From UHGV virus genome UHGV-1351068: 64,000 nucleotides of DNA; one strand, written 5' to 3'. Positions 3,765-63,582 of the stretch are shown here, in pieces. The DNA comes from a virus. How positions within the stretch are numbered: the stretch's first letter is position 1; the number at the start of each line of letters is the position of its first letter. A model generated the notes under the pieces. The model was not told where the DNA came from. It made no database searches and worked only from the letters and a program-made list of their open reading frames with translations. The position numbers and the translations under genes were made by a program.

Positions 3765-3775
3765 AGTGGCCTCCT

Positions 3776-3801
3776 TATAAATACTGTTATTAATATTTAT
3801 A
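3776..3801. promoter_or_regulatory. pair of interdigitated divergent late promoters for gene 53 (+) and gene 4 (-)
   Basis: TATAAATA at 3776-3783 on the plus strand. Its reverse complement at 3794-3801 is the minus-strand copy. Each lies about 30 nt upstream of its start codon (gene 53 at 3814, gene 4 at 3764). Confidence 0.65.
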
Positions 3802-3813
3802 AGAGGATAAACT

Positions 3814-12041: not shown

Positions 12042-13059
12042 TTCAACAAGAGCAAGTTCAACGCGTAGCACGATTTATCGTGCTATCATTACATCTAAGT
12101 TTAGAACTGAAAAGATGTACACATTTTATAAATCGATTGGTCCGGGAACGGACCAAAACACACTGTATGTTTCATTTGGCAAAAGCACTCCGTGGTCAGA
12201 TAACGAATCTGAACCCGGATTTGCACCTCCATATCCCGCTGATAATGGAGATGGGGTAGTTGATGTTTGGACAAATATGATGGGCGCGGTCAAAATTGAA
12301 TCATCAATGCTTGACTGTGTTGTTCCAAGAAGAGACTGGGGAGATACAAGATATCCTAACCCACGCACATTTCTAATTGGCGATATCGTTGTTGCTAACT
12401 CTGCGCCATATAACAGAACTGATGCTGGATTTGGATGGATGGTATATAGATGTATTGATGTTCCAAAGGATGGAATGTGTTCAATTGGCAATCTTACAAG
12501 CAAAGAAGAATGTATTAAGCTTGGGGGTAAATGGACACCATCCACTATTTCTGGTTCAGCTCCTCGAGGTCGTGGTGATGCAAATGGTACCGTCGATTTG
12601 GGCGATGGATATCTTTGGGAATATCTATATGAAATTCCAGCCGACGTATCAATTAACAGATGTACAAATGAATATATCGTAGTTCCTTGGCCAGAAGAGA
12701 TTGAAGAATCTCCAGCCCGTTGGGGATTTCAAAACAACTTAACTTGGCAACAAAACGACTTTAATTTGATTTATCGCATGAAATGCAATACTATCAGGTT
12801 TAAAGCGTATCTTGATGCGGTTTATTTTCCGGAGTTCAGTCTTCCGGGAAATACTGGATTTAGACAGCTGTCAATTATAACTAATCCGCTTGAAGTTAAG
12901 CCAATGCCAAATTCACCTAATGTTAAGGCTGAAAAAGGCTGGTATAGTGCTTCTGGTCTTGAAAGACAGTCAGGTGAAATGATTTACATGGAAAATCGGC
13001 AACCTATTATTCGTTCAATGGACCAAACGGAAGAATTAAACTTAATTTTCGAGTTTTAA
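12034..13059 (+). CDS. 8: baseplate wedge protein gp8
   Basis: About 341 aa. Very close to T4 gp8 as remembered: YRAI.TSKFRTEKM, PRRDWGDTRYP, NRCTNEYIVVPWPEE, IYMENR.PII.MDQTEE. Confidence 0.92.
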   Translation: MSNSTRASSTRSTIYRAIITSKFRTEKMYTFYKSIGPGTDQNTLYVSFGKSTPWSDNESEPGFAPPYPADNGDGVVDVWTNMMGAVKIESSMLDCVVPRRDWGDTRYPNPRTFLIGDIVVANSAPYNRTDAGFGWMVYRCIDVPKDGMCSIGNLTSKEECIKLGGKWTPSTISGSAPRGRGDANGTVDLGDGYLWEYLYEIPADVSINRCTNEYIVVPWPEEIEESPARWGFQNNLTWQQNDFNLIYRMKCNTIRFKAYLDAVYFPEFSLPGNTGFRQLSIITNPLEVKPMPNSPNVKAEKGWYSASGLERQSGEMIYMENRQPIIRSMDQTEELNLIFEF

Positions 13060-38545: not shown

Positions 38546-38570
38546 TATAAATATGATTGTATTTATAACT
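38546..38570. promoter_or_regulatory. interdigitated divergent late promoters for uvsW (+) and the inh-hoc operon (-)
   Basis: TATAAATA at 38546-38553 (plus). The reverse complement of TATTTATA at 38563-38570 is the minus-strand copy. Confidence 0.6.
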
Positions 38571-42096: not shown

Positions 42097-42108
42097 TATT
42101 TATAAATA
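42097..42108. promoter_or_regulatory. overlapping back-to-back late promoters for gene 26 (-) and gene 51 (+)
   Basis: The palindromic core ATATTTATAAATAG holds TATAAATA on both strands (plus 42101-42108, minus 42097-42104). Confidence 0.65.
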
Positions 42109-55272: not shown

Positions 55273-55335
55273 TTGTTTATCTGTTTGGGTGGTACAGGTC
55301 TATAGTAACCCAGACCACCCAAGAAGTAAACAACT
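55273..55335 (-). promoter_or_regulatory. early promoter / stem-loop cassette (PeSL-like copy 3)
   Basis: Minus strand: aaaaGTTGTTTACT-N17-TACTATAGAC. The long imperfect inverted repeat TTGTTTActtcTTGGGTGGT ... ACCACCCAAacagaTAAACAA encloses the -10 element. Confidence 0.6.
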
Positions 55336-56279: not shown

Positions 56280-56340
56280 TTGTCCGTTTGGGTGGTACAG
56301 GTCTATAGTAACCTTGTTGAACTTAGAAGTAAACAACTTT
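56280..56340 (-). promoter_or_regulatory. early promoter cassette (PeSL-like copy 4, upstream stem arm degenerate)
   Basis: Minus strand: aaaaaaGTTGTTTACT-N17-TACTATAGACCTGTACCACCCAAAC. About 70 nt is near-identical to copy 3. Confidence 0.6.
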
Positions 56341-61233: not shown

Positions 61234-61521
61234 TTACTTAACGCAACGAGGTTCCTTAAGGTCAGAACGATAATAACATATCATTCCATTAGCATCTTTA
61301 GTATAACGTAAAATGTCATTCATCCAGATGCGATACTCTTGCGACTCTTCAAATGGCATACCTACCCAGGCTTTGCCATCAATTACTTTTACTTCCCAAT
61401 GTCCTTCCCATTTTTGTATTGGGTCTGGCCATTCAGGATGTAAAACCGGGACATCCGGTGCACTAGAAGAGCATCCAACAAGTAAGCTGATAATACCCAT
61501 GGCTAATAGACTTCGTTTCAT
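61234..61521 (-). CDS. outer-membrane lipoprotein, candidate o-spanin (T4 pseT.2 equivalent)
   Basis: 95 aa. Signal peptide with lipobox LLVGC. 4-nt overlap with the upstream i-spanin candidate. Confidence 0.6.
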   Translation of the reverse strand: MKRSLLAMGIISLLVGCSSSAPDVPVLHPEWPDPIQKWEGHWEVKVIDGKAWVGMPFEESQEYRIWMNDILRYTKDANGMICYYRSDLKEPRCVK

Positions 61522-61871
61522 CTGGTAGCCTCCTGGATATCTTCTGCAAACTTATTGAAGCTTGCATTAATCTGTTTTTCAACCAATCCAGGTTTAGCTG
61601 CAACTACATTTCCACGCTTAGAATCTTTATTCATCTTAGCATTAGAAGTATCACGCGCTGCTCGATTTTCCTGATAGCCTTTATATGTTGTCTGCAGATT
61701 TTTTATAGAAACACCAATATTTTCTATTTCTTTTGCTTGGCGATCAGATTCGTCTTGGACGACTTTGAGGTCAGCTTTAAGATTTTCTACCCGCCACGAA
61801 AGATATTTCAATCCGCCGGCGGATAATGCTAACACTCCAATCATCAACCAAGTTGTGTTTATTTTGAGCAT
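61518..61871 (-). CDS. candidate i-spanin (T4 pseT.3 equivalent)
   Basis: 117 aa. N-terminal TM helix WLMIGVLALSAGGL followed by a coiled coil. Confidence 0.55.
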   Translation of the reverse strand: MLKINTTWLMIGVLALSAGGLKYLSWRVENLKADLKVVQDESDRQAKEIENIGVSIKNLQTTYKGYQENRAARDTSNAKMNKDSKRGNVVAAKPGLVEKQINASFNKFAEDIQEATR

Positions 61872-62368
61872 AGTTTAAGGATAACCTCTACGATATCATC
61901 ACGGGATAATCCCGAAATGAGGATGTGACGATCAGAACTTTCCGAAGGAGAACACTTGAAGCAAGCTTCTACATATTCTGCCATCTCGGAATAATTCAGC
62001 TCGCGATGCATAATGCCAAGACGATGTTTGCCATAAATCGGGTCAACGATTACATAGCATTTGCATCCGTTGGCATGAACGTTTGGTTGAGTGATGTTCT
62101 TGAACACCTCTGCACCATACTTCGCGAGATGATTATCTAGGAAATCAATCATTTCATCTACGGCTTCAGGCAAGGCTTCAGCACGCTGCTCGTTCACACG
62201 ATTGGTGTACTCTTTTTGCTTCTTACGAGCAGCTTCCTTACGCGCCATATGCGTTCGTAGGTCAGTGACGAATCCCACTTTCTTGGTGCCATTCCACACA
62301 AAAATCCCGTCGGAATGAGTACCATATTTGTTAACAACCATATCTAAAGTAATTGCTTGCATATCCAT
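61859..62368 (-). CDS. alc: Alc-like protein (positional equivalent of T4 alc)
   Basis: 169 aa (T4 Alc is 167 aa). Lies between rnlA and pseT.3, as in T4. Has its own early promoter. Confidence 0.45.
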   Translation of the reverse strand: MDMQAITLDMVVNKYGTHSDGIFVWNGTKKVGFVTDLRTHMARKEAARKKQKEYTNRVNEQRAEALPEAVDEMIDFLDNHLAKYGAEVFKNITQPNVHANGCKCYVIVDPIYGKHRLGIMHRELNYSEMAEYVEACFKCSPSESSDRHILISGLSRDDIVEVILKLCSK

Positions 62369-62374
62369 TTCATT

Positions 62375-62432
62375 ATCCTCATCAGTTGGTGTAAGTCTAT
62401 AGTATCACACCTTGATGAGGATGTAAACAGCT
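62375..62432 (-). promoter_or_regulatory. early promoter / stem-loop cassette (PeSL-like copy 5) that sequesters the alc SD
   Basis: Minus strand: ctGTTTACA-N17-TACTATAGAC. The 10-bp perfect inverted repeat ATCCTCATCA/TGATGAGGAT, plus the inner GGTGTGA/TTACACC, encloses the -10. The 3' arm contains SD GAGGAT. Confidence 0.6.
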
Positions 62433-63582
62433 ATTCTTCAGAAATTTCAATTTCTTTTTCGTACTCTTTTGGAACATATCCAGCCCAGTACTTCAAGAAC
62501 ACTTTTTCAAGGTCTTTAAGCAGTTTATCTACATCTACTGTTCCTTCATACATGTTCATGATAACACCAAAAAGATGACGCTGATTAACCGTTGCTTTCT
62601 GTGCAGCAATGGCATAGTCTTTACGAGCACGACCTCTGTATTCATCATAGAATGACTGACACAGCTCAAGTGACTTTCCAAGGTAATCTAGATAAGCTTG
62701 CTCAAATGCAGAAATTTTCTTAATTGCATATTCGTCTCCAGCAAAAAGAGAACGCAAGTCATCAGAGTTTGCAGATACGACAGACGCAAACAGTCTTTCA
62801 TTTGACGTTATTGAGTCTTTGGTGTGATGAAGAGCTGAGTACCATTCTGTTTTAACCTTAAATCTCTGCCCAGTGTTTAGAACTGCAATGTATCCTTCTA
62901 CGCCTTCAAGTGCACGAACACCTTCAACCCAAGTACTAGGGTCAGAAATTCCATAAGCATTAATTAAATAAGGACGAATTTTAGCATTAGCGTACAAATC
63001 GTCATATTTAACATACTCGCCGGTTGCGTTATCACGGACGTTTAACACAAACAATTGTGGCTCCTGATATGCAAGAACAACACGATTATCAGGTGAAACA
63101 AATTCCATGTTTACCGTATAACCATCTAGCGTTAACTCAAGAACGACTTGATGAAGCGAAGAATACTCTTCACTATTAAGCAGGGCAGAAGACCTTCTCG
63201 CCTGGTCACTATAAAGAGAGGTTTTTGATTTAAGATATAGATACCCATCATCAACATAAGATGACACTAGAGAGCCATCAGCCTTATCCATAATGTATTC
63301 TACATCACTAATATCAATTCCCATTGTCATCGGGTTTTCATTCAAGTTAAAGAATTTTTCCATTGGACGAGAAGCAATACGAATTGGAGTATCACCATCC
63401 ATTTCAAACATGATGCCACGGCACTCAAGAGCATCTGGTTTTAACCACTCGCTATAACTTGCGTAGTGATATGAAAACACTCTGAACTTACCATCCATAG
63501 GACCAGTAAAATCTTTATAAAAGAATTTTGCAACTTCTGAGCTTTCACACAGATTCATTAAATTTTTATATAGCTCTAACAT
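62431..63582 (-). CDS. rnlA: RNA ligase 1
   Basis: 383 aa (T4 Rnl1 is 374 aa). N-terminus and ALECRGIMFEMDG, IASRPMEKFFNLNENP match T4. Adenylation lysine in KADGSL. Confidence 0.92.
   Translation of the reverse strand: MLELYKNLMNLCESSEVAKFFYKDFTGPMDGKFRVFSYHYASYSEWLKPDALECRGIMFEMDGDTPIRIASRPMEKFFNLNENPMTMGIDISDVEYIMDKADGSLVSSYVDDGYLYLKSKTSLYSDQARRSSALLNSEEYSSLHQVVLELTLDGYTVNMEFVSPDNRVVLAYQEPQLFVLNVRDNATGEYVKYDDLYANAKIRPYLINAYGISDPSTWVEGVRALEGVEGYIAVLNTGQRFKVKTEWYSALHHTKDSITSNERLFASVVSANSDDLRSLFAGDEYAIKKISAFEQAYLDYLGKSLELCQSFYDEYRGRARKDYAIAAQKATVNQRHLFGVIMNMYEGTVDVDKLLKDLEKVFLKYWAGYVPKEYEKEIEISEE

Follow-up and report, generated by a model that had tools for sequence, protein, structure and literature searches.

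A promoter spacer complementary to the alc Shine-Dalgarno sequence in a T4-like phage: a candidate switch for promoter-dependent translation

How could a gene that lies inside a long, continuously transcribed unit behave as strictly early? The question is raised by alc, whose product shuts off host transcription on cytosine DNA, and we address it at the junction between rnlA and alc on the minus strand of a 64,000-nucleotide (nt) stretch of a virus genome (UHGV virus genome UHGV-1351068; the whole stretch is referred to below as the window). At this junction the Shine-Dalgarno (SD) sequence of alc forms one arm of a long hairpin, the other arm of which is encoded in the spacer between the -35 and -10 hexamers of the gene's own early promoter. 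We consider it probable that this hairpin makes alc translation depend on the promoter that made the RNA, leaving the gene silent on transcripts that read through from rnlA.

Architecture and predicted folding of the rnlA-alc junction

The two genes are separated by 62 nt, which on the minus strand read TAG-CTG-TTTACATCCTCATCAAGGTGTGATACTATAGACTTACACCAACTGATGAGGATAATGAA-ATG from the rnlA stop to the alc start (TAG-CTG-TTTACATCCTCATCAAGGTGTGATACTATAGACTTACACCAACTGATGAGGATAATGAAATGG from the stop onward). A consensus scan identifies here a promoter of the form TTTACA-17-TACTAT with an extended -10 TG, and the cassette as a whole consists of this strong sigma-70-like early promoter, an A/T-rich upstream region and a short intergenic spacer that ends in the SD and the start codon (Table 1). 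The segments ATCCTCATCA and TGATGAGGAT are exact complements and form a 10-bp outer stem, with the SD GAGGA inside the 3' arm, 8 nt ahead of the alc ATG; GGTGTGA and TTACACC form an inner stem, and the loop consists of the -10 hexamer plus 4 nt. An earlier note on this DNA had placed the alc SD within the 3' arm of a long hairpin whose 5' arm lies upstream of the early transcription start, and sequence, fold and predicted +1 all confirm that arrangement. In its details, the perfect 10-bp outer stem stands, whereas the 7-bp inner stem includes one G.U pair (G62406.U62393); similarly, every element of the minus-strand string that it spelled out is present, but one A was written twice, as A62422 ends the -35 hexamer and at the same time opens the arm. 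The predicted start falls within the inner 3' arm, downstream of both 5' arms and between the two outer arms, so that RNA initiated at this promoter would lack the 5' arm and read-through RNA would carry both; the outer 3' arm corresponds to positions +9 to +18 of the predicted alc transcript.

Table 1. Features of the rnlA-alc junction and flanking genes, in window coordinates
Feature	Position	Strand	Basis and remarks
rnlA (RNA ligase 1)	62431..63582	-	Pfam T4_Rnl1_C and RNA_lig_T4_1; stop TAG 62433-62431
-35 hexamer TTTACA of T4-type early (sigma-70) promoter	62422..62427	-	Consensus scan
Outer 5' arm ATCCTCATCA (anti-SD)	62413..62422	-	First part of the 17-nt -35/-10 spacer
Inner 5' arm GGTGTGA	62405..62411	-	Sequence and fold
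-10 hexamer TACTAT	62399..62404	-	Consensus scan; extended -10 TG at 62407-62406
Predicted transcription start (A)	62392	-	Promoter geometry, 7 nt past the -10
Inner 3' arm TTACACC	62388..62394	-	Sequence and fold; one G.U pair
Outer 3' arm TGATGAGGAT	62375..62384	-	Sequence and fold; SD GAGGA 62380-62376
alc (inhibitor of host transcription)	61859..62368	-	Pfam PF17527 (ALC), E = 2.6e-48; ATG 62368-62366
PseT.3-like Rz/i-spanin gene	61518..61871	-	Open reading frame (ORF); annotated as Rz-like spanin (T4 PseT.3) in Mineola

RNAfold assigns the hairpin a free energy of -24.9 kcal/mol, compared with -12.8 ± 3.0 kcal/mol for 200 dinucleotide shuffles, none of which is as stable (z = -4.04); the earlier note had counted a hairpin no better than shuffled controls as a refutation. 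In read-through RNA, folded with 60-150 nt of upstream context, the SD has a predicted unpaired probability of 0.04. To compare leaders we used an opening cost, the energy needed to force positions -14 to +3 open, with +1 set 7 nt past the -10 (here A62392). This cost amounts to 14.5-16.3 kcal/mol for read-through RNA as opposed to 6.2 kcal/mol for RNA beginning at +1, in agreement with the proposal that the SD would be occluded when both arms are transcribed and freer when the promoter-initiated RNA lacks the 5' arm. When the 17-nt spacer alone is shuffled, the cost falls to 5.0 ± 1.3 kcal/mol (maximum 8.0; 0 of 30 shuffles reach 16.3), and since spacer shuffling removes the occlusion, the occlusion is encoded in the spacer sequence. 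On the same metric, the T4 hairpins established by experiment score 15.7 (e, 4.1 from its late start), 15.6 (49), 14.1 (I-TevI) and 7.0 kcal/mol (soc), so the analogy to e that had been drawn from the sequence holds quantitatively; T4 alc itself scores 16.9 kcal/mol. A 10-bp repeat alone is not rare, as the window contains 32 inverted repeats of 10 nt or longer within 60 nt; the case rests instead on location, one arm lying at the SD and its partner in the promoter spacer, on the spacer-shuffle control and on phylogenetic covariation.

In the mechanism that we favour, RNA from the alc promoter would start at about A62392 and carry the 3' arms only, and its 24-nt leader would be nearly unstructured, leaving the SD free for Alc to be made immediately after infection. 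Read-through RNA coming from denA and rnlA or from further upstream, be it delayed-early, middle or late, would also carry the spacer segment ATCCTCATCA, which would be made ahead of the SD and could pair with TGATGAGGAT once the SD emerges, the inner 7-bp stem adding stability. With its SD buried, the long RNA would not bind the 30S subunit and would yield no Alc. Synthesis of the protein would thereby be tied to its own early promoter, as a pulse that ends when early promoters are shut off, despite continued transcription of the gene in longer RNAs. Three nucleotides past the SD GAGG and 4 nt past G62377 there is also an out-of-frame ATG (62373-62371, minus strand), which opens a mini-ORF of 9 codons (ATGAAATGGATATGCAAGCAATTACTTTAG) overlapping the alc start; its spacing is probably too short for efficient initiation.

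The genomic setting makes read-through plausible. Across 1.2 kb the region is 90-98% identical to T4-like Klebsiella phages (142 records), with phage Mineola (NC_055748; Jiaodavirus, Tevenvirinae) as the best match at 97%, and the minus-strand order denA, rnlA, alc, two spanin-like genes and pseT is the same in T4. The rnlA stop lies 3 nt before the -35 hexamer, so that an RNA polymerase transcribing rnlA enters the alc cassette directly. A terminator scan finds no terminator-like site on the minus strand between rnlA and alc, and the Mineola annotation has none in the frd-td-nrd-denA-rnlA-alc stretch, between one terminator after gene 32 and another about 5 kb downstream of alc. The stem itself has an A/U-rich base and is followed by the A-rich tail AAUGAAAUGG, with no U-run; for lack of a U-run and of a scan match, its identification as an intrinsic terminator was rejected. 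In time-resolved omics of T4 (PMC9697503 supplement), the RNAs of alc and of its upstream neighbour rnlA both fall into the early class, whereas the proteins differ, Alc being early and RnlA late; this is consistent with the read-through model and not diagnostic of it.

The gene downstream of alc, similar to T4 PseT.3, starts at ATG 61871 and overlaps the end of alc by 13 nt (61859-61871, minus strand). Given this overlap, spanin translation may be coupled to that of alc and thus be indirectly affected by the hairpin, and less coupled translation of the spanin gene would be a corollary of the proposed silencing. For PseT.3 of T4, the RNA is assigned to the early class and the protein to the middle class.

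Conservation and covariation of the alc leader

Homologues of alc were found in 1,114 phage records, and leaders were taken from 16 annotated phages of different genera and 44 IMG/VR contigs, together 50 distinct sequences. In 35 of these the opening cost of the read-through RNA exceeds that of the promoter-initiated RNA by 6.8-17.8 kcal/mol, and in 34 by at least 7.9 kcal/mol; the window's own group is among the 35. Counting T4/T2 as one, the arrangement is shared by that lineage and 10 or more others. A layout with a 5' arm running from the last -35 base or from right after it and a 3' arm that holds the SD is found in T4, T2, Bp7 (Dhakavirus), ABTNLPp2 (Gelderlandvirus), EcS1 (Kagamiyamavirus), PG7 (Karamvirus), Merlin (Moonvirus), CBH8 (Winklervirus), pzk-kv8 (Marfavirus), Entb_45 (Kanagawavirus) and several further contigs, lineages among which the Alc protein is only 45-60% identical. 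The paired segments read ATCCTCATCA/TGATGAGGAT in the window, ATCCTCATTTTGTTG/CAACAAAATGAGGAT in EcS1, TCCTCATTTCGTT/AACGAAATGAGGA in CBH8, TCTCCATTTGGTT/AACCAAATGGAGA in PG7, CCTCGTTTGTT/AACAAACGAGG in pzk-kv8, CCTCTCGTTTTTG/CAAAAACGAGAGG in the contig leader L038 and AGTCC(C)TCGTGTTGTGT/ACATAACATGAGGACT in T4. In Acinetobacter phage 133, Aeromonas phage avDM5 and the IMG/VR leaders L034 and L035, the 5' arm has shifted to just past the -10, at or upstream of the start, and its partner is still the SD. Across 25 aligned alc leaders the spacer varies, in contrast to GTTTACA, which is identical in all of them, and to the conserved TA…T positions of the -10.

A plain MAFFT alignment of the 25 leaders gave zero pairs in RNAalifold, since the arms of different lineages do not fall into register. 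We therefore replaced it by an ungapped alignment of 23 distinct leaders, in which 17-nt segments of the arms were lined up on their central C[A/G]T and A[T/C]G. In this alignment 78% of the cells are paired, as opposed to 62% when the 3' letters are shuffled and 37-48% when the partners are slid by 1-3 columns; changes on both sides occur in 14 of the 17 pairs, and doubly changed cells number 63 where 24 ± 3.6 are expected. The covariation score is 0.441, compared with 0.191 ± 0.018 for shuffled controls (0 of 500 reach the observed value) and 0.09-0.125 for slid ones. The nine core pairs are formed in 91-100% of the leaders (96% or more for all but one), each by as many as three pair types, and the SD and the anti-SD change in concert (GAGG/CCTC, GGAG/CTCC, GGGG/CCCC). 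In a swap test, cognate upstream and SD segments pair with a mean of -16.0 kcal/mol and non-cognate ones with -10.3 kcal/mol. A covariance model built from 8 orthologues, with the window excluded, finds the window element at E = 1.7e-11. The alignment from this model was left out of the counting, as it misaligned distant leaders (T4, Dhakavirus and L036/L038) and the model also matched the reverse strand, a consequence of the near-palindromic nature of the element.

Points of doubt and competing explanations

Several observations weigh against promoter-dependent translation of alc. The promoter-initiated leader of the window, at 6.2 kcal/mol, is costlier to open than most of its orthologues (1-4 kcal/mol). 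The source of any read-through RNA lies upstream of the window end, and neither a late (TATAAATA) nor a convincing middle promoter is found on the minus strand at 62.4-64.0 kb. The alignment register was picked per sequence for maximal pairing and the sequences are related, both of which inflate the covariation statistics somewhat; in addition, G.U and A.C mismatches are about equally frequent in the core stem (9 and 8, respectively), so that wobble cannot tell selection on the sense RNA from selection at the DNA level. In Mosigvirus, L045, L047/L056, L068 and the Acinetobacter phages PhT2 and AB-Navy1 the hairpin still spans the promoter but does not extend to the SD, and the stem is degraded in phage F48; the SD-free hairpins of these several lineages imply that a hairpin at this place can have an SD-independent role. 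Finally, we infer where alc transcription starts, that read-through RNA exists and that its translation is blocked. In favour of the mechanism, some lineages without SD occlusion, L068 for example, carry at the same place a canonical terminator-like hairpin with a U-run instead, a substitute in keeping with a common requirement that alc be shielded from transcription arriving from rnlA or beyond.

As to possible sources of long RNA, the late-promoter motif TATAAATA is absent from both strands between 57.3 kb and the window end, and a middle promoter for rnlA inside the window was considered and rejected, the single MotA-box-like match within rnlA being at chance level. Over the window as a whole the late motif is enriched (18 matches, 5.9 expected), and at three junctions of divergent genes (3774-3803, 38546-38567 and 42097-42108) copies on the two strands stand back to back.

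The main alternative is that the stem-loop is an attenuator or terminator that stops or lowers transcription coming from rnlA, the overlap with the SD being a by-product of a very short leader. Such a role has been proposed for the PeSL (promoter-early stem-loop) cassettes of RB49/phi1, PST/T4 and nt-1/KVP40, whose stem-loops lie between or over the -35 and -10 and one of which cut lacZ expression as strongly as rrnB T1 (PMC2839356; PMC4122927). It would also accommodate the hairpins without an SD that straddle the spacer or the -10 in two other cassettes of the window (55330 and 435) and in Mineola, as well as the alc orthologues whose hairpins leave out the SD or lead into U-runs (Acj133, L068, L034). 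However, the window stem and those of most orthologues run into A-rich tails where a U-run would be expected, the terminator scan is empty at the alc junction, and the published PeSL subclasses end at or before the start, whereas the 3' arm at alc lies inside the transcript. Moreover, the SD remains the partner even where the 5' arm has shifted (Acj133, avDM5, L034) and the anti-SD tracks the SD, neither of which a pure attenuator needs. We therefore regard attenuation as an unlikely explanation of the element, although it need not be exclusive of translational silencing: an untranslated alc segment could be subject to Rho-dependent polarity, a second corollary of the proposed mechanism, which would link the hairpin to the question of immediate-early and delayed-early transcription.

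More doubtful is a role in RNA stability or processing, in which the stem-loop would keep 3' exonucleases off rnlA mRNA or be a processing site of the RNase III type in polycistronic RNA. A 17-bp stem in two segments, worth -25 kcal/mol and placed directly after the rnlA stop, would suit this function, as would the persistence of hairpins in lineages where the SD is not included; yet it leaves unexplained both the use of the SD as the 3' arm in at least 12 named lineages and the covariation of SD and anti-SD, and an Rfam 15 search of 61800-63000 matched no family at E up to 1.

Selection could also act on the DNA: the repeat might modulate the early promoter as a cruciform or as a binding site for a protein, or it might supply homology or structure for cassette shuffling. 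In T4 a near-identical copy of the alc cassette precedes alt.-3, the window cassettes at 56333 and 55330 have common ends, PeSLs are reported to recombine, and neither the lack of a G.U excess over A.C nor the match of the covariance model to the reverse strand of a near-palindrome would be surprising for such an element. Nevertheless, the primary sequence diverges freely while pairing is kept, the opposite of the pattern that recombination homology needs; a DNA element gives no reason for the SD to be one arm across successive lineages; and alc is a syntenic core gene rather than a shuffled ORFan. A DNA-level function thus seems to us highly improbable.

The least credible alternative is translational coupling, in which the hairpin would hold alc shut in polycistronic RNA until opened by a ribosome that completes rnlA, so that the output of Alc follows the translation of RnlA: the rnlA stop does lie just upstream of the 5' arm and the SD does pair with the stop-proximal end of that arm, but the stop ends 8 nt before the first pair (62422), with similar or larger gaps in T4 and PG7, which makes coupling to rnlA unlikely, given that the footprint of a terminating ribosome reaches the foot of the helix at most and that classical coupling hairpins have the upstream stop inside or beyond the 5' arm, and in T4 the RnlA protein is classed late and Alc early.

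Other early-promoter cassettes and known systems

Promoter-dependent translation of alc, the reading we prefer, had been suggested by the earlier note to be possibly a general function of such cassettes, and on this point its interpretation, partly supported as a whole, fails for the phage at hand. Among the six early-promoter junctions of the window that were scored (62427, 56333, 55330, 48600, 38602 and 435), only that of alc (62427) is occluded; the other five open at a cost of 7.4 kcal/mol at most and cannot be told apart from their own spacer shuffles. The hairpins at 55330 (GGGTGGT...ACCACCC) and 435 (GGGTT...AACCC) straddle the -10, end near +1 and never reach the SD. Likewise, 15 of the 17 cassettes scored in Mineola (100 kb) show nothing, and two stand out, those of alc (a difference of 11.4 kcal/mol) and of a modB-like ADP-ribosylase gene (8.9 kcal/mol; ~12329-12400, minus strand). 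The latter has a perfect 10-bp repeat, AGCCATGATA/TATCATGGCT, with a 5' arm that overlaps the -10 and the spacer of its early promoter and a 3' arm that covers the start codon, the same logic as at alc but with the AUG buried instead of the SD; T4 modB scores similarly.

Two neighbouring cassettes on the minus strand of the window, at 56333-56268 and 55330-55256, lie ~1 kb apart and have common ends (aaagttgTTTACTtct... and ...ggtTACTATagacctgtaccacccaaac). GGGTGGT, with which ACCACCC can pair, is present in the spacer of the 55330 copy alone; the 56333 copy holds an orphan 3' arm and looks like one of the recombined 'half' PeSLs that Comeau et al. 2014 describe. Ahead of the -35 of the 56333 promoter, ATTTTCCG (56357-56350, minus strand) can pair with CGGAGAAT (56279-56272), the SD of the downstream gene some 70 nt away; opening then costs 4.7-7.3 kcal/mol in read-through RNA and 1.7 kcal/mol from +1, a pairing that may be due to chance.

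T4 (AF158101) presents a different picture, as 10 of its 33 early junctions cost at least 10 kcal/mol to open, where spacer shuffles lead one to expect 1.67 (maximum 5). Clear spacer-encoded anti-SDs are found at regB, alc, nrdC.8, an ORF in the ndd region, motB.2, alt.-3, denV and 30.8, the denV arms reading TCTCCTGTAG/CTACAGGAGA. The alt.-3 cassette (ATG 123032) is a near-identical copy of that of alc (ATG 136275). Tentatively, then, one may ask whether an anti-SD in the early-promoter spacer is a family-wide design of T4-like phages, a possibility that we hold to be less than even, in which immediate-early, host-takeover and regulatory genes would be translatable only from their own promoters. 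In T4 the set would include alc, regB, denV, motB.2, nrdC.8, 30.8, alt.-3 and modB (the last with the AUG occluded by a different arm), alc being the most deeply conserved; the untranslated cistrons could create the Rho- and nuclease-sensitive boundaries that underlie the classical distinction between immediate-early and delayed-early RNA, and many PeSL stem-loops might be, in part, translational insulators.

If the promoter of origin does set alc translation, this would explain the strictly early behaviour of alc inside a long, continuously transcribed unit, extend to early genes a principle known in T4 for late ones, and give the promoter spacer a second, RNA-level coding role. The roughly ten T4 early junctions with the same signature would offer a handle on the function of PeSL stem-loops and on the immediate-early/delayed-early boundaries, and the cassette could find use as a 60-nt part by which a gene is shielded, through its translation, from transcription that comes from upstream. 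Although the principle is known for late promoters, its early-promoter spacer version at alc appears to be new: no description of the alc leader hairpin was found in the literature searched, two 2010 T4 reviews included, older T4 sources having been outside the search, so that an earlier mention is possible, and a 2010 review of T4 translational control structures does not name alc.

Among known systems, intrinsic terminators share with the alc hairpin a stable stem-loop at a gene end, and differ from it in that the latter has no U-run, no scan match and an A/U-rich stem base. A closer likeness is offered by the PeSL cassettes (Arbiol et al. 2010; Comeau et al. 2014), whose parts are an upstream stop, a stem-loop in or over a strong early promoter, an SD and a start codon, and which are repeated in the genome; their stem-loops fall into five subclasses, lie upstream of, within or just before the start, and are read as terminators or attenuators and as recombination sites. 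The alc cassette is similarly compact, with a stem-loop over an early promoter, and the window has several such cassettes. In contrast to the PeSLs, the 3' arm at alc is within the transcript and is the SD itself, and the gene belongs to the conserved syntenic core instead of being an ORFan of a hyperplastic region; in the PeSL literature, SD pairing is not described and the words translation and ribosome are absent.

The closest parallel is that of T4 e, soc, 49 and I-TevI, where a hairpin buries the SD and/or the AUG in RNA started upstream and a promoter starting between the arms yields a translated RNA devoid of the 5' arm (PMC3014915). At alc, too, the SD is predicted to be sequestered in read-through RNA and the predicted start lies between the arms, and the opening energies are of the same size on one metric (14.5-16.3 kcal/mol in the window, 14.1-15.7 kcal/mol for T4 e, 49 and I-TevI). 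Unlike in the e class, with its late TATAAATA promoter, the internal promoter of alc is of the early sigma-70 type and the 5' arm occupies its -35/-10 spacer. As judged from sequence, the alc hairpin would follow the logic of e, soc, 49 and I-TevI with the timing reversed, a case that is strong in structure and evolution and conditional in function: whereas the genes of the e class are silent early and on late, alc would be on first and then silent in the later long RNAs.

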